From Rickettsia sp. (GTDB taxonomy: Bacteria; Pseudomonadota; Alphaproteobacteria; Rickettsiales; Rickettsiaceae): a DNA stretch of 64,000 nucleotides. Positions 746 through 62,973 of the stretch are shown here, in pieces. Position 1 is the stretch's first letter; every line of letters begins with the position of its first letter. The notes under the pieces were generated by a model. The model made no database searches, was not told where the DNA came from, and saw nothing but the letters and a program-made list of their open reading frames with translations. A program made the position numbers and the translations under genes. Where the stretch lies: the NCBI GenBank assembly GCA_023269695.1, contig JAHFPS010000001.1, positions 44,366 to 108,365 on the forward strand, written 5' to 3'.

Positions 746-1759
746 ATGACAACTCCACAGAATTTTATTTATAAATTATCAGATTATTTGCAAAAAAACA
801 ATGCATTGCAAAAAATCATCAATAAATTCCAAACAGATTACTCGCTAATACCTTGCATTGGAGTGGAAATAGAATTTTATTTAAGCAAAAATATTGACCC
901 ACTCAAATTGCAAACTCTGCTTGGTATATTAGTTAAGAAAGAAAAAGGCGATAATCAATTTGAGATAGATTTGCCACCTTCTACTAACATAATTGAGTAT
1001 ATAGGAAAAATTAGTAGCACTAAGTCTAAAATACAAATTATTGCAAAAAAATTGCAGGGCAAGGTAAATTTTTCTGCCAAACCATTGCCAAACGGTTATG
1101 GTAGTAGTATGCATTTTCATGTAAATTTTATAGATTCTTCAAGGTCTATTAGCGAAGAGGCTGCTTTAGTAGCGACGAAGCAAAGTCCCCCCAACGTCAT
1201 TGCGAGACCACGTGAGTGTAGTGGCAATCCACATTCATTAGATTGCTTCGTTGCCGCTAAAGCGGCTCCTCGCAATGACGTTGAGACCTTGCTTCGTTCG
1301 GGCTTCACGGCTCCTCGCAATGACATTAGTTTACTACGAACAAATACTGATATGCTTGATCTAATGGGGCAGAGTATCTGCCATTATATGCTCGATAGTT
1401 TTTTGATATTTATGCCGAATGAAGATGATTACCTTCGTTTAGATAAAAATTTTATGGCACCAACTAATGTATCTTTTGGTAATAATAATAGAACTGTTGC
1501 CGTACGCATTCCTGACTCATCTCCTAGAAGAGTAGAACATAGAATAGCAAACCCACTAACCGATCCTTATTTGGCAATTTTTACTATTTTAAACTCTATA
1601 TTATTAGGTCTAGAATTTCCTGATAAAATCAATAATATCAACAAAATATATGGTAATGCTTTTGATCAACAATATCATTTAGTACCATTACCAAAATCAT
1701 TAGCAGAAGCATTAGCATTGTTTGATTTGCAGTTTTTTTTATCTAAACATTTTCTCTAA
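746..1759 (+). CDS. glnA: Glutamine synthetase catalytic-domain protein (short GlnA-like) with an in-frame repeat insertion
   Basis: GVEIEFY, NQFEI, SMHFHVN, NNRTVAVRIP and RVEHR motifs; start moved from 677 to 746 because 677 overlaps pgeF. Confidence 0.8.
   Translation: MTTPQNFIYKLSDYLQKNNALQKIINKFQTDYSLIPCIGVEIEFYLSKNIDPLKLQTLLGILVKKEKGDNQFEIDLPPSTNIIEYIGKISSTKSKIQIIAKKLQGKVNFSAKPLPNGYGSSMHFHVNFIDSSRSISEEAALVATKQSPPNVIARPRECSGNPHSLDCFVAAKAAPRNDVETLLRSGFTAPRNDISLLRTNTDMLDLMGQSICHYMLDSFLIFMPNEDDYLRLDKNFMAPTNVSFGNNNRTVAVRIPDSSPRRVEHRIANPLTDPYLAIFTILNSILLGLEFPDKINNINKIYGNAFDQQYHLVPLPKSLAEALALFDLQFFLSKHFL
1144..1324. repeat. Nested core palindromes inside glnA (inner core 1195-1280)
   Basis: GTCTATTAGCGA...[CGTCATTGCGAG...CTCGCAATGACG]...CTCGCAATGAC; the inner unit is nearly identical to 22180-22263. 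Confidence 0.9.
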
Positions 1760-2068
1760 AACTTCTAAAATTAAACATGTAGTTTCAGTGTCTAAAACTC
1801 CAAGCTTTCTTATAGCTCTAGACTTGTCTATAGTACGAATTTGATCAAGTATAATACTCCCTTCTTTACCATTAAAAACTATAGGAACACGAGTCGGGTA
1901 ACTTTTAATCTTACTTGTCATGGGTGCAACAATAAGAGTTCTTATATATTTATTCATTTCGTTAGGGGAAATAACTATACAGGGTCTTGTTTTGTTTATC
2001 TCTGATCCTTGAGAAGGATCAAGAGATACGAGTAATATATCAAACCTATAAATATCTACCATTGCCAT
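1739..2068 (-). CDS. mazF: PemK/MazF-family mRNA interferase toxin
   Basis: LDPSQGSEINKTRPCIVISP, LDQIRTIDKSR. Confidence 0.9.
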   Translation of the reverse strand: MAMVDIYRFDILLVSLDPSQGSEINKTRPCIVISPNEMNKYIRTLIVAPMTSKIKSYPTRVPIVFNGKEGSIILDQIRTIDKSRAIRKLGVLDTETTCLILEVLEKMFR

Positions 2069-2307
2069 TCTTCTTCATCCCAAGAATGTTCTATTAAATT
2101 GATATCTAACAAGTGATCATCTTCATTTTTAGACATAAGATGAAAGCTTTTTTCCCATCCTTCTCTTGCTTCTTCATAAGGTGTTATAATAAGAGCATGA
2201 TCTTTTACTGTTAAGTTCACAACATTTGTTATTTTGCATTGTTTAAGAAAGGCTTTAGGGATTCTTAAGCCCTTTGAGTTACCAATTTTGATAATTTCTG
2301 CATGCAT
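2056..2307 (-). CDS. mazE: AbrB/MazE-family antitoxin
   Basis: IIKIGNSKGLRIPK AbrB motif; directly upstream of and overlapping the toxin; ATG at 2307. Confidence 0.88.
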   Translation of the reverse strand: MHAEIIKIGNSKGLRIPKAFLKQCKITNVVNLTVKDHALIITPYEEAREGWEKSFHLMSKNEDDHLLDINLIEHSWDEEEWQW

Positions 2308-2336
2308 TTTTATTACCAATATTACTTAAAATTTAG

Positions 2337-2488
2337 TATAGCTAACCCGAATAAGTTTTTGATATCCCAGGCGTCATTGCGAGACCACGTAGTGGTCGTG
2401 GCAATCCATGCTTTTGGATTGCTTCGTCGACCTTGCGGTTCTCCTCGCAATGACGGAATCTATCTAAAACCTTCCCAGGTTAGCTATA
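2337..2488. mobile_element. Shell-A MITE (TATAGCTAACC TIR) carrying the core palindrome
   Basis: TATAGCTAACC at 2337, GGTTAGCTATA ending 2488, core inside. Confidence 0.9.
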
Positions 2489-2614
2489 CATTGTAATTAC
2501 TTTGTATACCATGTCAAGTAATTATATCTTGGATAATGCAGGAGTGCAACTATTTGACAATAGACAAGGAGAAGCAGCTACTATAGAATTACTACTAGAA
2601 ATAATGAAGAAATT

Positions 2615-3328
2615 ATGGTGTCCAAAGTTCTAAAAATTGGTAAGTGCCAAGTGCAGTTATTACCTTTATCACTTACTATATTAGCATTTGTCATCCTCTT
2701 ATCATTGGGGTTTTGGCAAATTGCTAGATTGCAGGAAAAAGAACTATTTTTAAGTTCAATGAAAAATAACCTTAATAATCCTCCTATTGATATAAAAACA
2801 CTTAGTGCAGATAAATTATATGCTAAAGTGAAAATGAAGGGGCATTTTTTGGTTGGTAAGAATTTGCATCTTTATGGACGTAAATCAATGTCCACTGAAA
2901 AAGATGGCTATTATTTAGTCAGTCCTTTTCAAACTGATGATAATAAGATAGTCTTAGTTGCATTAGGGTGGTTTGCTGCGAGGTATAAGAAAAATATTGA
3001 TGATATAGTGGATGACTCTACAGAAATTACCGGTGTAATTCTCCCTGGTGAGAAAACCAAGCTGTTTGTCTTAGATAATGATGTTAAAAACAATGTTTGG
3101 TTTACTTTAGATTTAACTCAAGCATCCAATATTCATGGTTTGACATTAGAAGATTTTTATTTAATTATGGAAGGTAACAATAATCAATCTGATATTCTTA
3201 AAAGTTTGTCGATTAAAAATCTGTTAAATGTCAGAAATGATCATTTAGAATATGCCATTACTTGGTTTGCCTTGGCAATTTCGTTAGCAGTAATTTTTGT
3301 AATTTATTATTTGCCTAAAAGAAAATAG
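2615..3328 (+). CDS. SURF1/Shy1 cytochrome oxidase assembly protein
   Basis: LGFWQIARL, HLEYAITWFALA. Confidence 0.9.
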   Translation: MVSKVLKIGKCQVQLLPLSLTILAFVILLSLGFWQIARLQEKELFLSSMKNNLNNPPIDIKTLSADKLYAKVKMKGHFLVGKNLHLYGRKSMSTEKDGYYLVSPFQTDDNKIVLVALGWFAARYKKNIDDIVDDSTEITGVILPGEKTKLFVLDNDVKNNVWFTLDLTQASNIHGLTLEDFYLIMEGNNNQSDILKSLSIKNLLNVRNDHLEYAITWFALAISLAVIFVIYYLPKRK

Positions 3329-7502: not shown

Positions 7503-7538
7503 TAATTACTCTTACTAAAATTACCATTAATGGGTCTA

Positions 7539-7607
7539 TTTGCTTCGTGGGCTTATGCCTTCTCGCAATGACGCCAGTTATTTTTCCACAACTTTTAAAC
7601 TGCCCTG
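7539..7607. repeat. Right half of a shell-B element
   Basis: TTGCTTCG...CTCGCAATGACG...ACTTTTAAACTGCCCTG. Confidence 0.8.
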
Positions 7608-20548: not shown

Positions 20549-22120
20549 ATGTCATCATTTGTTTCACAAAAATATAAGAATATAGGTATAGTTGGTTTGG
20601 GTAAGACTGGTATGGCTGCTTATCAATCATTAAATAAAGTAGCTAGGATAATTTGTTATGATCAAGTAAGTAGCAGTAGGGATGCTTTCAGTAAAATCTA
20701 TGGAAACGATAATTTGGTTAGCTTATCTGATCGGCGGTGGCAGGAGCTTGATAAGATACTACTGAGTCCAGGCGTTTCCTTGTCGCATGATATTGTTACA
20801 ATGGCTAATTCCCGTAATATACCAATAACCTCAGATATAGACCTATTATTTGAGGAGGTTAAGTTCAGAGGGGGCAATAAAGCTAATTTCATTGGTATAA
20901 CTGGTACTAATGGTAAGAGTACTACCACAGCTTTAACCGGTCATATTTTACAATTTTGTAATTTTGATTACCTAGTTGGCGGAAATATTGGTTTTCCTGC
21001 TTTAAGTATGGGATTAGATTGTCAAGGATATGTATTAGAGCTATCTTCATTTCAGTTAGACTTATTAAGCAGTTTTAAAGCTAAAATTGCTGTGCTTCTT
21101 AATATTACCGAAGATCATTTAGATCGACATAATAATATACAAGGCTATATTGCCGCTAAAAAGAAAATCTTTGATCGAATGGATAAAGATTCATTTGCTA
21201 TAATTAGTGTTGATGATGAAATTACCAACAATATCTTCCTAGAATTAGAAAATGAAAATAAAACAAATATAGTACCAATCTCTGTTGGTAAAATCCTTGA
21301 TAAAGGAGTGTCAATTTGTAATAATGTTGTTTATGACAATATTTTTGAACCGATTACTATTAATCTCCATAATAATAGTTCTTTACAAGGCATACATAAT
21401 CAAGAAAACATTGCCGCTAGTTATGCAGCTTGTCGGATTATAGGGGTAAGACCAGAACAAATAATTGCTGCCATCGAGTTGTTTAAGGGGTTGCCGCACA
21501 GGATGCAATATGTTGGAGCAATATACTCAGATCATTCGAATATAGCTAATCCGATTAGCATTACGCCAAATTCACAGACGTCATTGCGAGGAGCCACTTT
21601 AGCGGCGACGAAGCAATCCAGAAAAGTGATTAGAAATGGATTGCTTCGTTCGGGCTTCGCACCTCCTTGCAATGACGCCAGTTTACTATGGCTAAATGCT
21701 AGTAAGGTTAGCTATATGATAAATTTTTATAATGATAGTAAGGCTACCAATGGCATTGCTGCTTCTAAATCCATTGCAGCACTTGATAATATATATTGGT
21801 TAGCTGGAGGGGTGGCAAAAGAAGGGGGAATAACAAATTTAGAGCCATGGTTTGATAAAATTCGTAAGGCTTATCTTTTCGGTCAAGATAAAGAACTTTT
21901 TGCATCGTCACTTAAGGGCAGGGTAGATTTCCAAATTTGTCATGATTTACAGGAGGCTTTTAATGCTGCCGTTAGGGACGCAATGCAGGATATAGGGGAT
22001 ATAAAAAATATCTTGCTAGCTCCGGCTTGTGCCTCTTACGATCAATTTAAAAATTTTGAAGAACGTGGAAATCTATTTATAGAATTATATAATATTATTG
22101 CTAATCATGATCAAAGATAA
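20549..22120 (+). CDS. murD: UDP-MurNAc-L-Ala:D-Glu ligase with a 58-aa in-frame insertion
   Basis: ITGTNGKSTTT, ELSSFQL, LNITEDHLDRH, GLPHR, NDSKATN, LAPACASYDQF. Confidence 0.96.
   Translation: MSSFVSQKYKNIGIVGLGKTGMAAYQSLNKVARIICYDQVSSSRDAFSKIYGNDNLVSLSDRRWQELDKILLSPGVSLSHDIVTMANSRNIPITSDIDLLFEEVKFRGGNKANFIGITGTNGKSTTTALTGHILQFCNFDYLVGGNIGFPALSMGLDCQGYVLELSSFQLDLLSSFKAKIAVLLNITEDHLDRHNNIQGYIAAKKKIFDRMDKDSFAIISVDDEITNNIFLELENENKTNIVPISVGKILDKGVSICNNVVYDNIFEPITINLHNNSSLQGIHNQENIAASYAACRIIGVRPEQIIAAIELFKGLPHRMQYVGAIYSDHSNIANPISITPNSQTSLRGATLAATKQSRKVIRNGLLRSGFAPPCNDASLLWLNASKVSYMINFYNDSKATNGIAASKSIAALDNIYWLAGGVAKEGGITNLEPWFDKIRKAYLFGQDKELFASSLKGRVDFQICHDLQEAFNAAVRDAMQDIGDIKNILLAPACASYDQFKNFEERGNLFIELYNIIANHDQR
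21541..21716. mobile_element. Shell-A MITE in frame within murD
   Basis: TATAGCTAATC...GGTTAGCTATA; 176 bp including both TA, net 174 bp. Confidence 0.93.
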
Positions 22121-32260: not shown

Positions 32261-32592
32261 AAATATTAAACCTTTAAATAGCAATTATATATGCTAAAGT
32301 TTTGTAAATAATTCTGCTATCTGCTGTCTAATTAATGATTAGCAGATAGTTAGATACTCAAATGTTCTTGAGGATTAATTCCGCAAAATCTGAGGGTACA
32401 CCCACATGTTCACGTACCAATTCCCTTAATACGTTATGGTTTTTCGTTTAATTTTTTCTAAAAATTCTCTAGTTATATCTTGTTTAAACAAGTCTATCAC
32501 TAGAAAAATTTTTTCTTGCACTTACATCTCGTGCTTATACCATAATACCAGGTTTTTTAAGGAAATCGCTAATTTTCTTTATTCAAAATTTA

Positions 32593-32757
32593 CAGGGCAG
32601 TTTAAAAGTCGCAGAAAAATAACCGACGTCATTGCGAGAAGCCACTTTAGTGGCGACGAAGCAATCCATAAAAGTGGATTGATTCGGAGGTCCTATGACC
32701 TCCTCGCAATGACGTTCCGGGTTTTTTAACCGGTCTTCACGACTTTTAAATTGCCTG
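32593..32757. mobile_element. Shell-B MITE (ISAs1-like CAGGG ends) with 9-bp TSD
   Basis: CAGGGCAGTTTAAAAGTC...GACTTTTAAATTGCCTG; CAAAATTTA at 32584-32592 and 32758-32766. Confidence 0.92.
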
Positions 32758-32962
32758 CAAAATTTATTATCTTGGCTCAAGATAGATTTATGCAATCCCC
32801 TCTACCAAATTACTTCAATTTCGAATTAGCTAATTTTTGTTGGTAATGTTTTTACTGGTAATATTTCAATTATATCAATAAAATTCTGAACACTAATAGT
32901 TGATGTTAAATTATTTGCAAAATCATTAATAATATCAAAAATGTTTTATCACTTGCTAATGA

Positions 32963-34609: not shown

Positions 34610-35248
34610 TTAAGATTTTTTATTAGACTTCCTGCAAAACTCTACTTCTGCTGGTGATTTGCACGTCGACGCGGTACTCGAATCTTCGCATACACTAGAG
34701 TACGCTGCGGTTCGAGGTGAAGAGTCTCCTTCAAATCCCTCAGCACAAGTGACTTTTGCAGGAAGTCTATTCATTAAATTTCTGAACATTTCATCTGTCA
34801 ATACCAAAGAGGCTTTTTTTATCATATCAAATGAAAGCACTATATCTTTACCATTATTATTCAGATAAATTTTATTATCTTCAGTTTTAACTATCTTTCC
34901 CTGATATCGAGTTTGACCATTTAGTAATTCTTTTAATTTTATGGTAGCTTCTCTACCGAGAAATCTAGTGTAATCTTCAAATTTTATTAATGGACGTTCG
35001 ATACCTGCTGAACAAACTTCTAAAAAATATTTATCACTAATTATATCTTCAACATCTAAGAGTGCCGAGATATTTTTACTAACATTACGACAATCTATTA
35101 TATTAACCTTATTACCATCCAATCTATCTATTAACACTTCAAGTACTTTATGGCTTGAACCCTTTAAAGTTACTTTTACCAAATCAAAACCAAGATCTTT
35201 TATGTTATCTTGTATAGCATTAATAATTTGTTGTTCTATAGTTTGCAT
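34610..35248 (-). CDS. rimP: Ribosome maturation factor RimP with a 49-aa RPE insertion near the C-terminus
   Basis: CRNVSKNISALLDVED, LEVCSAGIERPL. Confidence 0.95.
   Translation of the reverse strand: MQTIEQQIINAIQDNIKDLGFDLVKVTLKGSSHKVLEVLIDRLDGNKVNIIDCRNVSKNISALLDVEDIISDKYFLEVCSAGIERPLIKFEDYTRFLGREATIKLKELLNGQTRYQGKIVKTEDNKIYLNNNGKDIVLSFDMIKKASLVLTDEMFRNLMNRLPAKVTCAEGFEGDSSPRTAAYSSVCEDSSTASTCKSPAEVEFCRKSNKKS
34625..34768. mobile_element. 144-bp RPE-1-like palindromic element in frame in rimP
   Basis: AGACTTCCTGCAAAA...TTTTGCAGGAAGTCT; ATT on both sides; encodes the GFEGD..RTAAY..V.EDSST peptide. Confidence 0.9.
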
Positions 35249-35388: not shown

Positions 35389-35657
35389 CAGGACAATTTA
35401 AAAGTTGTGGAAAAATAGCTGGCGTCATTGCGAGGAGGCGTAAGCCTACGAAGCAATCCATTCTAATCACTTTTCTGGATTGCTTCGTCGCTACTAAAGT
35501 AGCTCCTCGCAATGACGGTTTGGTAAAAAGTACTTTCGTCATTGCGAGACCACATAGTGGTCGTGGCAATCCAAAAAGTGACCAGAAATGGATTGCTTTG
35601 TTGTGCTTCGCTGCTCCCTCGCTAATAAACAGAGTAATGTTAGTCGGGTTAGTTATA
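35389..35657. mobile_element. Chimeric element: B left TIR, two cores, A right TIR
   Basis: CAGGACAATTTAAAAG...GGTTAGTTATA; TTATAATGG at 35380-35388 and 35653-35661. Confidence 0.8.
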
Positions 35658-37298: not shown

Positions 37299-37661
37299 CG
37301 TCATTGTGAGGAGTGCGTAAGCACGACGAAGCAATCCAAAACATATGCTAAACAATATCTTCATATAAATTGGATTGCTTCGTCACCACTTTAGTGGCAC
37401 AGCTGTCGAAAGTTAGAAGAGGAAGAGGTTTTAGATAGTGTACTTTAAAAGTTGTATGTGGTCAACGTCATTGCGAGAAGACCGTAGGTCGACGAAGCAA
37501 TCCAGGAAAGCAACCAAAAATGGGTTGCTTCGTCGGCTCATGCCTCCTCGCAATGACGCCAGTTATTTTCCCGCAACTTTTAAACTGCCATGATAGCCTC
37601 TAAACCCGCTCTACCTTCTAACTTTCGACAGCTGTGACTTTAGTGGCTCCTCGCAATGACG
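37299..37661. repeat. Outer core palindrome interrupted by a shell-C element
   Basis: CGTCATTGTGAG...[insert]...CCTCGCAATGACG. Confidence 0.88.
37398..37636. mobile_element. Shell-C element (239 bp) with 10-bp TSD
   Basis: CACAGCTGTCGAAAGTTAGAAG...CTTCTAACTTTCGACAGCTGTG; ACTTTAGTGG at 37388-37397 and 37637-37646. Confidence 0.92.
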
Positions 37662-39856: not shown

Positions 39857-40034
39857 TATAGCTAATCCGAGTAACATTACTCTGTCATTGCAAGGAGTAC
39901 ACAAGTTCCAGGCGTCATTGCGAGGAGCAACTTTAGTGGCGACGAAGCAATCCAAAAAAGTAATCAGAAATGGATTGCTTCGTCGGCTCACGCCTCCTCG
40001 CAATGACGGAATAATGTTAGTTGGGTTAGCTATA
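39857..40034. mobile_element. Shell-A MITE
   Basis: TATAGCTAATC...GGTTAGCTATA. Confidence 0.9.
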
Positions 40035-40047
40035 CATTCTATAGTTT

Positions 40048-41352
40048 TTAATGTCTTGTCCTAAGTTGCTCTGCTTTGCTCAATGCTTCTTCTGCTTGCG
40101 AGTTTTTACCTAATTTTTTCAAGGCAACACCTTTGTTATAGTAAGCTCTAGCATCATCAGGCTTATATTTGATTGTCAAATCAAATAATGTAATTGCCTC
40201 CTGGTATTTGCCTAATTTACCTAAAGTCATACCTTTGTTATAGTAAGCTTTAGCAAAATCAGGCTTATATTTGATTGCCAAATCATAGGCTATAATTTCT
40301 TCTGGGTGTTTACCTAACTTATCTAAAGCTATACCTTTACTATAGTAAGCATTAGCGAAATCAGGCTTATATTTAATTGCCAAATCATAGGCTATAATTG
40401 CATCCTGCCATTTATCTAATTTATCCAAAGCAACACCTTTGTTATAGTAAGCTTCAGCAAGATCGGGCTTATATTTGATTGCTAAATCATAGAAGTTAAT
40501 TGCCTTATGCCATTTGCCTAATTTACACAAAGTTGTACCTTTGTTATGGTAAGCTATAGCAAAATCAGGCTTATATTTAATTGCTAAATCATAGCAGTCA
40601 ATTGCATCCTGCCATTTATCTAACTCATCCAAAGTAGTACCTTTATTATAATAAGCATCAGTATAATCAAACTTATATTTAATCGCCAAATCATAGGCTA
40701 TAATTGCCTCATGCAATTTGCCTAATTTGCCTAAATCAACACCTTTGTTATAGTAAGCTTTAGCATAGTCAAACTTATATTTAATTGCCAAATCATAAGA
40801 GTCAATTGCTTCTTGATATTTGTTTAATTTTTCTAAAGCAATAGCTTTGTTATAGTAAGCTTCAGCAAGATCAGGCTTATATTTAATTGCTAAATCATAG
40901 GAGTTAATTGCCTCATGCAATTTATCTAACTTATATAAATTGTTACCTTTGTTGGTGTAAGCTTTGGCATGATCAGGCTTATATTTAATTGCTAAATTAT
41001 TTAGTATAATTGCCTCTTGCCATTTGCCTAACTTACTTAAAACCTCACCTTTGTTATAGTAAGCATCGGCAAAATCAGGCTTATATTTGATTGCTAAATC
41101 ATAAGAGTCAATTGCATCCTGCCATTTATCTAACTTATCCAAAGCAGCACCTTTATTATTGTAAGCTTCAGCAAGATCAGGATTATATTTGATTGCCAAA
41201 TCATAGAAGTCAATTGCTTCTTGCCATTTGCCATACATTGCTAAAATATTCGCTTTCTCAAAATATTGTTGAGCATCGGCAATCACTTTGCTAAAGGGGA
41301 GTAATATTAAAGTAAGTAAAATTATTAGTTGTTTTATGTTAATTATTTTCAT
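40048..41352 (-). CDS. Signal-peptide TPR repeat protein (about 12 x 34 aa)
   Basis: Tandem AYYNKG..L.KLGK..EAI..YDLAIKYKPD units. Confidence 0.92.
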   Translation of the reverse strand: MKIINIKQLIILLTLILLPFSKVIADAQQYFEKANILAMYGKWQEAIDFYDLAIKYNPDLAEAYNNKGAALDKLDKWQDAIDSYDLAIKYKPDFADAYYNKGEVLSKLGKWQEAIILNNLAIKYKPDHAKAYTNKGNNLYKLDKLHEAINSYDLAIKYKPDLAEAYYNKAIALEKLNKYQEAIDSYDLAIKYKFDYAKAYYNKGVDLGKLGKLHEAIIAYDLAIKYKFDYTDAYYNKGTTLDELDKWQDAIDCYDLAIKYKPDFAIAYHNKGTTLCKLGKWHKAINFYDLAIKYKPDLAEAYYNKGVALDKLDKWQDAIIAYDLAIKYKPDFANAYYSKGIALDKLGKHPEEIIAYDLAIKYKPDFAKAYYNKGMTLGKLGKYQEAITLFDLTIKYKPDDARAYYNKGVALKKLGKNSQAEEALSKAEQLRTRH

Positions 41353-45669: not shown

Positions 45670-45971
45670 TATAGCTAAACCCGACTAATACCAATTAGTG
45701 TTAATAAATAGAGTTATAGAACTAACCCATCAATGTTCTAGATATCCCAGACGTCATTGCGAGGAGCTACTTTAGTGGTGACGAAGCAATTGTCAGTTGT
45801 CATTCCCGCGTAGGCGGGAATCTAGATCCCTGCTTTCGCAGGGATGACACAAAAATGGATTGCTTCGTCGGCTCACGCCTCCTCGCAATGACGGAGTAAT
45901 ACTAGTCGGGTTAGTCATCCATACATGACAAGTGGTCGCGGGAATGACAAAGGATTGCTGTGGAAATGACA
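45670..45971. repeat. Composite A arms, core and hairpin units between convergent genes
   Basis: TATAGCTAAAC at 45670; core at about 45752-45893; GGGAATGACA. Confidence 0.8.
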
Positions 45972-49280: not shown

Positions 49281-49295
49281 AATCAGAGCAGTTAA

Positions 49296-49366
49296 GGATT
49301 GTTTCGTCGGTCTTATGACCTCCTCGCAATGATATCAGTTATTTCTATGACTTTTAAACTGCCTTG
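49296..49366. repeat. Right half of a shell-B element
   Basis: GGATTGTTTCG...CCTCGCAATGA...GACTTTTAAACTGCCTTG. Confidence 0.75.
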
Positions 49367-50364: not shown

Positions 50365-50559
50365 TATAGCTAATCAGATTAGCATTACGCCAAATTCACA
50401 GACGTCATGGCGAGGAAGACCGTAGGTCGACGAAGCAATCCTGTTTTGTGTCATCCCTGCTTCAGTGCGGGAATGACAACTTACAATTGCTTCGTCAGCT
50501 CATGCCTCCTCGCAATGACGCCAGTTTACTATGGCTAAATGCTAATCTGGTTAGCTATA
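50365..50559. mobile_element. Shell-A MITE with arms nearly identical to the murD insert
   Basis: TATAGCTAATCAGATTAGCATTACGCCAAATTCACAGA...GGTTAGCTATA. Confidence 0.92.
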
Positions 50560-52044: not shown

Positions 52045-52376
52045 CTAACCCGAGAAGGTTTTAGCCATAGTAAAGGTGATGTTATTGCGAGGGGGCGTAG
52101 GCCGCACAACTGTCGAAAGTTAGAAGGGGAGGGGGTTTTAGGCAAGGTAGTTTAAAAGTCGTATGTGACCAACGTCATTGCGAGACCACGAAGTGGCATG
52201 GCGATCCACATTCATTAGATTGCTTCGTCGCCAAAATGGCTCCTCGCAATGATGCCAGGCTGTTTTCTCTATGACTTTTAAATGCCATGCGTAAGGTGAG
52301 TGATTAAGATCCTGAAACAAGTTCAGGATAACACATTTGGGTTTTAACCATTCTTTACGACTTTTAAACTGCCATG
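52040..52376. repeat. Composite A/C/B/G repeat cluster between convergent genes
   Basis: A TIR at 52040; C left at 52105; core at about 52173; G right end 52287-52301; B-type end 52359-52376 inside fmt. Confidence 0.85.
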
Positions 52377-53279
52377 AGGGCTTTGTACCCCACGCATAAA
52401 CTCCTCAGCACTTAAAATTTTTCTTCCTTCTTGCTGTAATTTTTGGATGATCAGAGTACCATTACCACAAACTATCTCCAATGAGTTATCATTATTAAAC
52501 ACGGTACCAGGTGGCAAGTTAGTATCCAAATCATTATAATAGGCTTCTAGAATCTTTATAATTTTACCTCTATATTCAAAATATACACCAGGCCAAGGAT
52601 TCATACCTCGAATTCTACAATCTATTTTGTAGGCAGTTTCACACCAATCTATCTTCCCTTCTTCTTTTTTAAGTTTATGAGCATAAGTTACCCCATTTTT
52701 ATCCTGAATAATTCTTGGTAAATTATCAATATTATCTAAAGTTTTAACCAATAAATCAGCTCCTATTTTTGCACATTGGTCGTGCAAAATTGGTAAAGTT
52801 ATTCTAGGAGAAAGTGACAATGAATGCTGCAATATAATGTCGCCAGTATCCAACCCTTCATCCATCTGCATTATACATACAGAAGTTTCTAAATCACCTT
52901 CTATAATAGTACGCTGCAATGGAGCTGCCCCCCTATGACGCGGTAAACTTGACGGATGAATATTAAGACATCCATATTTTTTAGCTTGTATGATAACTTG
53001 CGGTATTAAAAACCCATAAGCAACTACCACTATTATATCCGCATCAATTGAATTAATTAAATTAGTTATTTCTTCGGTTCTCAAGGTCTTAGGGGTATAA
53101 GTTGGAATATTATATTTTGATGCAAACTGATGAATAGGCGATGCTACCTCATTTAACCCTCTCCCTTTAGATTTTGCAGCTTGAGTAAATACGCCAACCA
53201 CCTGGTGGTCGTTGCTGTTAATTAACTCCCTAAGAGTGGGTACAGCAAATTCTGGCGTACCCATAAAAATTACTTTCAT
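52344..53279 (-). CDS. fmt: Methionyl-tRNA formyltransferase
   Basis: IFMGTPEFA, NIHPSSLPRHRGAAP, NPWPG. Confidence 0.98.
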   Translation of the reverse strand: MKVIFMGTPEFAVPTLRELINSNDHQVVGVFTQAAKSKGRGLNEVASPIHQFASKYNIPTYTPKTLRTEEITNLINSIDADIIVVVAYGFLIPQVIIQAKKYGCLNIHPSSLPRHRGAAPLQRTIIEGDLETSVCIMQMDEGLDTGDIILQHSLSLSPRITLPILHDQCAKIGADLLVKTLDNIDNLPRIIQDKNGVTYAHKLKKEEGKIDWCETAYKIDCRIRGMNPWPGVYFEYRGKIIKILEAYYNDLDTNLPPGTVFNNDNSLEIVCGNGTLIIQKLQQEGRKILSAEEFMRGVQSPHGSLKVVKNG

Positions 53280-53803: not shown

Positions 53804-54097
53804 AATTTTTAAACCGCAGATTATTTACCAAAAACTTACATTACTAAATCCTGTATTGTAACAGAAACTAACAAATAAGTCCAGTGCAGGCTATTTGTTA
53901 CTTACAATTATAATACTTAAACATTATTATAAAAAAATATTCTTTGCTAAATCCATTATAATTGTGTTACATTCCGCAATAGCTTTTCAGAATTTAGGAA
54001 AATCATTGATTGGATTACTCCATTATTAATTATTTCCTAATAATCTAAAATTATAGTATAACTTATATAGTACAACTTACAAAAAATTTAAGTATAT

Positions 54098-55490: not shown

Positions 55491-55765
55491 TATAGCATTT
55501 CTGTCATTAGACCTCCTTCGAAACTCGCTTGTGCTGAGGGATTTGAAGGAGGCTCGGAACGGAGAACCGCATCGTACTTAAATGTACGTGAGGATTCGAG
55601 TACCGAATCGACGTACAAATCACCAGCAGAAGTAGAGTTTCGAAAGAGGTCTATTGTGAGAAGACTGTAGGTCGACGAAGTAATCCAAGAGCATGGATTG
55701 CCACGACCACTACTTGTTCTCGCAATGACGAAGATGTTATCTAGAACCTTAACGGGTTAACTATA
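55491..55765. repeat. Degenerate A element whose core is interrupted by an RPE-1-like copy
   Basis: TATAGC...GGTTAACTATA. Confidence 0.8.
55509..55652. mobile_element. 144-bp RPE-1-like element
   Basis: AGACCTC...GAGGTCT with ATT on both sides. Confidence 0.9.
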
Positions 55766-55788
55766 ACATATTTTTTTAGGTAAAATAC

Positions 55789-56020
55789 CAGGGCAGTTTA
55801 AAAGTCACAACTAATGATATAAGATACTAGGTTATAGAAACGAATAGCTGTCATCGCGAGCCACGAAGTGGCGTGGCGATCCAAATAAACAGCTTGTTAT
55901 TTTTGCTGCTGCAATTTTTGGATTGCCACGTTGCCGCTTTGCGACTCCTCGCAATGACGGTTATTCACCTAAGTAAAACCGATCTTTTCTACTATTAATT
56001 GCGACTTTTAAATCGCCCTG
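55789..56020. mobile_element. Shell-B MITE with 9-bp TSD
   Basis: CAGGGCAG...TCGCCCTG; GTAAAATAC at 55780-55788 and 56021-56029. Confidence 0.92.
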
Positions 56021-56034
56021 GTAAAATACTCAAA

Positions 56035-59804: not shown

Positions 59805-59979
59805 TGTAGCTAACCCGATTAGTATTTATCCACGCAAACTGGCGTCATTGCGAGGAGGTGCGAAGCCCGAACGAAGCAATCCATTTCTAATCACCTTTCT
59901 GGATTGCTTCGTCGCTACTAAAGTAGCTCCTCGCAATGACGTCCGTGAATTTGGCGTAATGTTATTCGGGTTAGCTATA
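59805..59979. mobile_element. Shell-A MITE
   Basis: TGTAGCTAACCCGA...GGGTTAGCTATA. Confidence 0.9.
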
Positions 59980-61456: not shown

Positions 61457-61968
61457 TATATTCAAATGATTTGAAGAATTGTTTTTTGAAAATATCAGGG
61501 ACTTGCATACTCACGTACCACAGCTGTCGAAAGTTAGAAGAGGAAATGGTTCTAGAGGTCATCATGGCAGTTTAAAAGTTGTAAAAAAATAACTGGCGTC
61601 ATTGCGAGGAGGCATGAGCCGCACAGCTGTCGAAAGTTAGAAGGGGAATCGGTTTTAGGCAAGGTACTTTATAAAGTCGTATGTGGTCAACGTCATTGCG
61701 AGGAAGACCGTAGGTCGACGAAGCAATTGTAAGATGTCATTCCCGCGTAGGCGGGAATCTAGCTCCCTGCTTTCGCAGGGATGACAGAAAAATGGATTGC
61801 TTCGTCGGCTCATGCCTTCTCGCAATGACGCCAGTTATTTTTCCGCAACTTTTAAACTGCCATGATGACCTCTAAACCCGCTCTACCTTCTAACTTTCGA
61901 CAGCTGTAACTAAAGTAGCTCCTCGCAATGACATAGAGGCTATCTAGAACATTGACGGGTTAGCTGTA
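61457..61968. repeat. Multi-layer nest (RPE half, C, B, core, C, B, core, A end)
   Basis: C left ends at 61519 and 61622; C right end at 61908; A-like end at about 61968. Confidence 0.85.
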
Positions 61969-62633: not shown

Positions 62634-62666
62634 ATTGTTACTTTAACTATTTTGGCTATTATTATA

Positions 62667-62825
62667 CAGGGCGATTTAAAAGTCACAACTAATGATATAA
62701 AATACTAGGTTATAGAAACGAATAGCCGTCATCGCGTACCGCTTTGCAGCTCCTCGCAATGACGGTTATTCACCTAAGTAAAATCGATCTTTTTCTACTA
62801 TTAATTATGACTTTTAAACTGCCCT
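62667..62825. mobile_element. Shell-B MITE, internally deleted sibling of 55789
   Basis: CAGGGCGATTTAAAAG...CTTTTAAACTGCCCT; ATTATTATA at 62658-62666 and 62826-62834. Confidence 0.88.
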
Positions 62826-62973
62826 ATTATTATATCTTACGAATATTAATAAAAACTACGGTTCCCTGTCAATAGTTAAATTATTTTTTTATAAATAAGA
62901 GTTTTTGAATGATATAATGTATCGAATAACTGTTATTTTTATTGAAGTACAATCATCGCTTGTTGTGTAATAC

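Follow-up and report, generated by a model that had tools for sequence, protein, structure and literature searches.

The short palindromic repeats designated Shell B, found in a 64,000-nucleotide stretch of DNA from Rickettsia sp. (hereafter, the window), very probably constitute a MITE family derived from a 1,453-bp ISAs1-family IS which circulates in Candidatus Tisiphia. This origin, already put forward in a preliminary description of the same DNA, is supported by matching IS termini, by a 9-bp target duplication found in both the IS and the short elements, and by a transposase recognised by the NCBIfam model NF033564. Candidatus Tisiphia, a genus of Rickettsiaceae, corresponds to the former Torix group of Rickettsia, and the window is 93-96% identical over kilobases both to the Tisiphia endosymbiont of Hybos culiciformis and to a MAG labelled 'Rickettsia sp.'.

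Shell B is an ordinary kind of mobile-DNA relic, newly recognised. Its characterization provides a concrete origin and a proposed mechanism (ISAs1 transposase, insertion with a 9-bp stagger) for one layer of the nested palindromes of Tisiphia, which interrupt assemblies and have otherwise been grouped indiscriminately as 'RPE-like', and helps to explain the abundance of such palindromes in the source genome. For annotators, it offers a defined element, with its ends, two subtypes, duplication length and cognate IS, of practical use in repeat annotation, strain typing and the reconstruction of rearrangements in symbionts, while no general principle is changed. The novelty is modest and lies in the recognition of an ISAs1-derived MITE, the transposases having already been annotated and IS-derived MITEs being known in Rickettsiaceae (Orientia). 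In the open-access literature, neither a published ISAs1-derived MITE, including in the consulted papers that mention both terms, nor a paper linking ISAs1 to Rickettsia or Tisiphia was found.

Shell B copies in the window

The preliminary description reported three elements starting with CAGGGC, each enclosed by its own perfect 9-bp direct repeat, and all three were confirmed at their positions. Copy A, located in the nusA-infB spacer, is a type-2 MITE of 165 bp (32593-32757) in which ISAs1-type terminal repeats of about 20 bp surround a GTCATTGCGAG...CTCGCAATGAC palindromic core, and its target-site duplication, CAAAATTTA, is found at 32584-32592 and, in identical form, at 32758-32766. Copy C, a type-1 MITE of 232 bp on the plus strand (55789-56020), has IS-matching ends and a palindromic core as its interior, and its duplication, GTAAAATAC, occupies 55780-55788 and 56021-56029. 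Copy E, also type 1 and on the plus strand (62667-62825), is a 159-bp derivative of the C type, with ATTATTATA duplicated at 62658-62666 and 62826-62834. The three copies start with CAGGGC(AG/GA)TTTAAAAGTC and end with its inverted complement; the right end of copy A has a 1-nt deletion within the terminal repeat (CAGG-CAATTT), and that of copy E lacks the final G of the consensus, which allows an alternative reading of its flanks as an 11-bp match, CTATTATTATA.

The family extends beyond these three copies: a search for the terminal motif CAGGGCRRTTTAAAAGTC, allowing up to three mismatches, gave 14 matches in the window, whereas shuffled sequence would be expected to give 0.23, and a count of 14 was attained in none of 100 shuffles. 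Nine Shell B loci in 64 kb were located by this search. In addition to A, C and E, they comprise copy B, an old and decayed type-2 copy (52143-52290); copy D, with CATGG-variant ends and further repeats nested inside (61563-61864); copy F, a type-2 copy with a CATGG-variant end and a decayed left end (37437-37592); copy G, consisting of left end and core only (35389-35518, plus strand); copy H, the right-end fragment of a 5'-truncated type-2 copy (7530-7607, minus strand); and copy I, a right-end fragment of the CAAGG variant (49290-49366, minus strand), which is itself spanned by an unbroken contig of run X1, a run that represents a close but distinct strain. The ends at 35389 (plus) and 37592 (minus), 2.2 kb apart, were considered as the limits of a full-length element and rejected: a porin-like gene lies between them, and they belong to two separate decayed copies.

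Perfect 9-bp flanking repeats were present in 20 of 32 short paired elements (those of the window together with Tisiphia and Rickettsia loci, a 1-nt shift of the boundary being allowed), several more of the 32 having one mismatch, versus 2 of 992 mismatched pairings of left and right flanks used as control. Such repeats are, thus, not a product of chance.

The two subtypes differ in the extent of IS sequence that they retain. In type 1, to which copies C and E belong together with a 236-bp family found in the Hybos endosymbiont, the match to the IS covers the first ~37 nt and the last ~24 nt; in type 2 (copies A, D, F, G, H and I), only an inverted repeat of ~20 nt is common to both, followed by AAAAATAACYGRC and the GTCATTGCGAG core. 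Copy E corresponds to the C type minus about 73 bp of its centre, and is 93% identical to C over 158 shared positions. The transposase gene is replaced in Shell B by a GC-rich palindromic core, as a result of which each element is one hairpin of 160-236 nt. On folding, copy A gave a single long hairpin of -82.4 kcal/mol (z of -12.4 against shuffles) and copy C a hairpin of -97.2 kcal/mol (z of -11.5). No Rfam family was matched anywhere in the window, and the plasmid collection yielded no Shell B copy, its only matches being weak, core-like ones in plasmids of Methylocystis and Novosphingobium.

The full-length ISAs1 element and its probable short derivatives

When one genome per species was scanned for the 18-nt end of Shell B, this sequence was found mainly in Tisiphia and other Rickettsiaceae genomes, and also in Ktedonobacteria, Chloroflexia and other MAGs. 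An ISAs1 DDE transposase bounded by Shell B ends, which the preliminary description had proposed to look for in relatives, was encountered in Candidatus Tisiphia. In the Tisiphia of Nemotelus uliginosus, an element of 1,453 bp (locus L049, 668-2120) is bounded by CAGGGCGATTTAAAAGTCACAAC...GTTGCGACTTTTAAATCGCCCTG, with inverted ends around a single ORF of 368 aa. This ORF contains the Pfam domains DDE_Tnp_1_assoc and DDE_Tnp_1, and matches NF033564, 'ISAs1 family transposase', at E 5.7e-53 and 180 bits (cut-off 70), over positions 1-313 of the 314 in the model. Moreover, D109, D170 and E303 of the transposase are kept across 12 relatives. All the annotated plasmid relatives of the protein are named ISAs1 family, with only 26-30% identity between it and the plasmid-borne ISAs1 transposases found. 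Transposases of Tisiphia had already been named ISAs1 family by NCBI; they are intact in several Tisiphia genomes, and many others contain short fragments of them. The Tisiphia of Ditula angustiorana carries six 1,453-bp copies encoding an identical protein, five of which have perfect 9-bp duplications, all of them different. Furthermore, a Rickettsiales MAG (L080) contains a decayed 1,215-bp relative, also with a 9-bp duplication.

The traits given for the ISAs1 family in the preliminary description (CAGGG ends and duplications of 8-10 bp) agree with the published ones (PMC11946415, PMC6305408). In the published description of the family, the inverted repeats begin with CAGGG and measure 14-22 bp, and the direct repeat is of ~10 bp (PMC11946415). 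Shell B shares the CAGGG start of the inverted repeat and direct repeats of 8-10 bp with ISAs1, ISEc1/H-repeat, ISArsp11 and the Francci3_2330 element of Frankia (PMC6305408, PMC11946415); the end of ISArsp11, which has a 10-bp direct repeat, is CAGGGCTGATGCAAAGTCG (PMC6305408), versus CAGGGCAGTTTAAAAGTCG in Shell B. Terminal inverted repeats with CAGGG and of 14-22 bp occur both at the Shell B ends and in the cognate element, and the duplication is of 9 bp in copies A, C and E, in the 20 short elements and in the five full-length copies mentioned above. The L049 partner also resembles ISAs1-family ISs in having a single DDE transposase ORF within ~1.2-1.5 kb, whereas in the elements of the window, of 159-232 bp, a palindromic core takes the place of any ORF.

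As regards the features by which a MITE is recognised, the window copies are short (less than ~600 bp) and without a transposase gene, and a tblastn search of the window with the partner transposase gave no match. The short elements keep the IS termini, CAGGGCRRTTTAAAAGTCRCAAC..., so that their ends hardly differ from those of an autonomous IS, which makes a duplication of equal length. Many dispersed copies exist, as seen in the window, in the Hybos endosymbiont genome and in the depth of run X1, where the summed word depth over the MITE is ~1,400-3,300 versus ~62 for single-copy DNA. This depth suggests, very roughly, 25-50 copies of Shell B per genome.

A transposase of another family with 9-bp duplications, such as those of the IS4 or IS5/IS903 types, is very unlikely to be what moves Shell B. 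The 9-bp duplication is not unique to ISAs1, and the L049 transposase is weakly similar to IS4 models (E 1.1e-6, below the cut-off); however, the only type of ORF found between Shell B-like ends, at seven Tisiphia loci and two distant ones, is that of ISAs1, of which CAGGG termini are the signature (PMC11946415). Just as improbable is the reading of Shell B as classical Rickettsia palindromic elements (RPEs), spread by some unknown route other than an IS and resembling ISAs1 ends by coincidence. RPE1-RPE10 are, like Shell B, short hairpin repeats (~100-150 bp) which litter Rickettsia genomes and can sit within genes (PMC10969869, PMC1458961), and this reading would account for hairpins of 150-230 bp in a Rickettsiaceae genome, for a palindromic core that is also present in other shells and for the true RPE1 copies of the same window. 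Nevertheless, up to 37 consecutive nucleotides of Shell B match the end of an IS with an ISAs1 transposase and with the same duplication length, and the RPEs, as described, come with no mention of a cognate IS or transposase, unlike Shell B with its IS termini and 9-bp duplications (PMC10969869, PMC1458961). When compared with curated domain models, of which TIGR01045 (RPE1) was the sole one confirmed present by a positive control, none of the nine long frames taken from copies A, C and F matched an NCBIfam family, RPE1 included (E up to 1), whereas the control element at 55506-55652 matched RPE1 at E 1.1e-14.

For Shell B as an ISAs1-derived MITE, the following mechanism is proposed. A full-length copy would supply the ISAs1 DDE transposase in trans; this enzyme would bind both ends of the element and link them to the target, cut with a stagger of 9 bp, and the repair of the gaps at the target would then leave the 9-bp direct repeats. 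A comparable case in Rickettsiaceae is provided by mISOt1, mISOt2a/b and mISOt4 of Orientia tsutsugamushi, which are likewise IS-derived MITEs, highly amplified and with the terminal repeats of their cognate IS (PMC2575882). They are thought to be moved in trans, and were not conserved in the Rickettsia genomes sequenced at that time (PMC2575882). Where their family is stated, the Orientia MITEs come from IS5 and IS630 ISs, whereas the probable source of Shell B is ISAs1; the palindromic core and the nesting present in Shell B were not described for them (PMC2575882).

Nesting, shared cores and RPE1

A CATGG-variant end characterises copies B, D and F, which lack a duplication of their own and adjoin sequence of a further repeat, Shell C, whose terminal repeat is CACAGCTGTCGAAAGTTAGAAG. 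A left arm of Shell C lies before copy B, Shell C arms surround copy D (61519-61908), and copy F lies entirely within a Shell C element. The composite containing F is a discrete element of 239 bp (37398-37636) with a 10-bp duplication, ACTTTAGTGG, and it is also found, 93% identical, at a non-orthologous site in the Hybos endosymbiont (L030, 1503-1741), with the 10-bp duplication GGATTGCTTC; both duplications are inside palindromic cores. The occurrence of the composite with duplications at two non-orthologous sites indicates that a Shell B copy was captured inside Shell C and then spread as a passenger. Since copy D is flanked by inverted and not by direct repeats, it lacks a duplication of its own. 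F is not an independent Shell B insertion but part of a second MITE, Shell C, and the same holds for D to judge from the terminal repeats at its flanks; some Shell B copies are now carried solely as passengers of Shell C.

Next to copy B, an extra Shell B right-end fragment is found at 52358-52376. The last ~11 codons and the stop (52344-52376) of an ORF on the minus strand (52344-53279) lie in a Shell B right-end fragment which is absent from the orthologous site of the Hybos endosymbiont; this repeat has remodelled the C-terminus of the product.

The GTCATTGCGAG...CTCGCAATGAC core is common to Shell B, with its 9-bp duplications, to Shell C, with 10-bp duplications, and to Shell A. Elements of Shell A, of ~176 bp (TATAGCTAACCCGATTAGCAT...GGTTAGCTATA) and with the same kind of core, are located at 21541-21716, 39857-40034, 50365-50559 and 59805-59979; at least one copy is inside a long ORF (20549-22120), and their ends could be read as TA-flanked. 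In addition, the cores have repeatedly received other elements, the loop having been the site of insertion for Shell C and for Hybos MITEs, and the arm for RPE1. The palindromic repeats of Rickettsiaceae might, then, form a modular system in which several IS-derived MITEs preferentially target hairpin cores and also carry them as cargo, a speculative reading which we regard as unlikely. If true, it would offer a concrete, transposase-based route of spread for at least some RPE-like repeats.

The 147-bp element at 55506-55652 is a true RPE1, whose peptide (...AEGFEGGSERRTASYLNVREDSSTESTYKSPAEVEF...) matches TIGR01045 at E 1.1e-14, and is inserted inside a GTCATT|GTGAG core. Another 147-bp element (34621-34767), located where the rimP ORF has its 3' end, encodes a near-identical peptide and is, by this likeness, a putative RPE1. 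The window and run X2 contain both elements, which are precisely skipped by X1 contigs of single-copy depth, and this directly shows a recent gain or loss of RPE-type repeats between near-identical strains. A nested palindromic repeat of ~193 bp (45689-45881) is replaced by 8 nt in an otherwise collinear 6-kb X1 contig, which adds a third repeat polymorphism to these two. Finally, a 102-bp unit (34 codons) is repeated eleven times in tandem at 40003-41322, inside an ORF on the minus strand (40048-41352).

Relatives, close strains and present activity

The 236-bp MITE of the Hybos culiciformis endosymbiont has the same ends, architecture and 9-bp duplications as Shell B. Among its 20 copies, the median identity between pairs is 96%, a sign of a recent burst there; the sampled part of the Hybos endosymbiont genome contains at least 20 copies. 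Copy C has a mean identity of 83.5% to this family; the Hybos copies are much more alike among themselves than those of the window, and some of them, unlike the latter, contain a nested 138-bp element. Variants of 374 bp are found in L099 (2496-2869), L040 (2326-2698) and L110 (6051-6424), and the extra length of the L099 variant is a TA-flanked palindromic element of 138 bp. Its TA flanks suggest an IS630/mariner-type MITE nested in an ISAs1-type one.

The flanks of all nine copies were compared with 111 loci, and orthologous DNA was found only for B and G, both of them shared insertions. Copy B is orthologous between the window and the Hybos endosymbiont and is therefore old; so is the insertion of copy G, since it is shared with Rickettsia sp. 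Cx337_bin23 (L058, match at 2224-2241). For copies A, C and E, the available relatives yielded no empty allele at the corresponding positions, as their spacers are too rearranged or their short-read contigs break off at the repeats. In the case of copy A, the spacer of Cx337_bin23 is too rearranged and contains other repeats. Runs X3-X5 are too diverged, or their contigs are too fragmented around copies C and E. Look-ups of flanking proteins returned only the source organism, a metagenome scan with the RelA/SpoT-like protein found no relatives, and the best relatives obtained in a metagenome scan with NusA, 74-75% identical, are too distant for the spacer to be compared. The search for reconstructed empty sites in the available DNA gave one paralogous match (27 of 32 nt). 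One Hybos copy sits in a Shell A repeat, of which an uninterrupted paralogue has one GATTAGCAT.

At ~53890-53900 the window has a single GCTATTTGTT, and in the Hybos endosymbiont an insert of ~1 kb is found there (L099, 1828-2885). This insert begins with CAGGGCGATTTA, its other extremity matches the inverted end weakly, and a 374-bp MITE is nested in its left end. Two short ORFs in it were read, without a family search, as a putative toxin-antitoxin pair, and the insert may be a cargo-carrying derivative of ISAs1.

The preliminary description had taken the intact duplications as a sign of recent activity, and had suggested insertion polymorphism among strains as a check; recent activity was not supported for this genome, and no insertion polymorphism of Shell B was seen between the two close strains. 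Contigs of run X2, labelled as groundwater metagenome, match the window without differences, and the strains of X2 and X1 alike contain copies A, C and E. Three other repeats do differ between these runs, indicating that the Shell B insertions predate the split of the strains and that other repeats have changed since. Moreover, a single ISAs1 element, at single-copy depth and ~87% identical to that of L049, was found in the runs of the source organism. In run X2 (L113), it has the left end CAGGGCGATTTAAAAGTCGCAAT and an ORF which ends after 264 codons, where an unrelated repeat begins; the right-hand part is on a separate contig and has a 1-bp deletion. No intact cognate transposase was found among the sequences at least 80% identical to L049 in the short-read contigs. 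Since the only cognate transposase gene found is truncated, Shell B is probably no longer moving in the source genome.

It is rather unlikely, though less so than the other origins considered above, that the family is still mobile here, with an intact ISAs1 transposase, either diverged or on an unassembled replicon, responsible for recent jumps. The three perfect 9-bp duplications would fit such mobility, as would the intact, multi-copy transposase genes of sister Tisiphia genomes, and a divergent intact copy could escape a search limited to at least 80% identity in Logan contigs. However, the single element found is truncated and at single-copy depth, copies C and E have diverged by 7%, and A, C and E are common to both runs while three other repeats are not.

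Elements with nearly the same 18-nt ends are also found outside Rickettsiaceae. Short ones of 86-162 bp, with perfect 9-bp duplications, occur in Ktedonobacteria/Chloroflexia (L021, L048, L064, L068, L069 and L073), and likewise, with 9-bp duplications, in an Alphaproteobacteria MAG (L028 and L086), which implies that this ISAs1 subgroup has produced MITEs in several phyla. In Ktedonobacterales (L050), an element of 1,434 bp carries an ISAs1-like ORF. Finally, over 30 contigs of the Rickettsiaceae MAG DT_105 (L006, L016, L020, L026, L033 and others) break off ~75 nt into either of two end sequences that bear this terminal repeat, a pattern which points to a high-copy full-length IS that collapsed the assembly.
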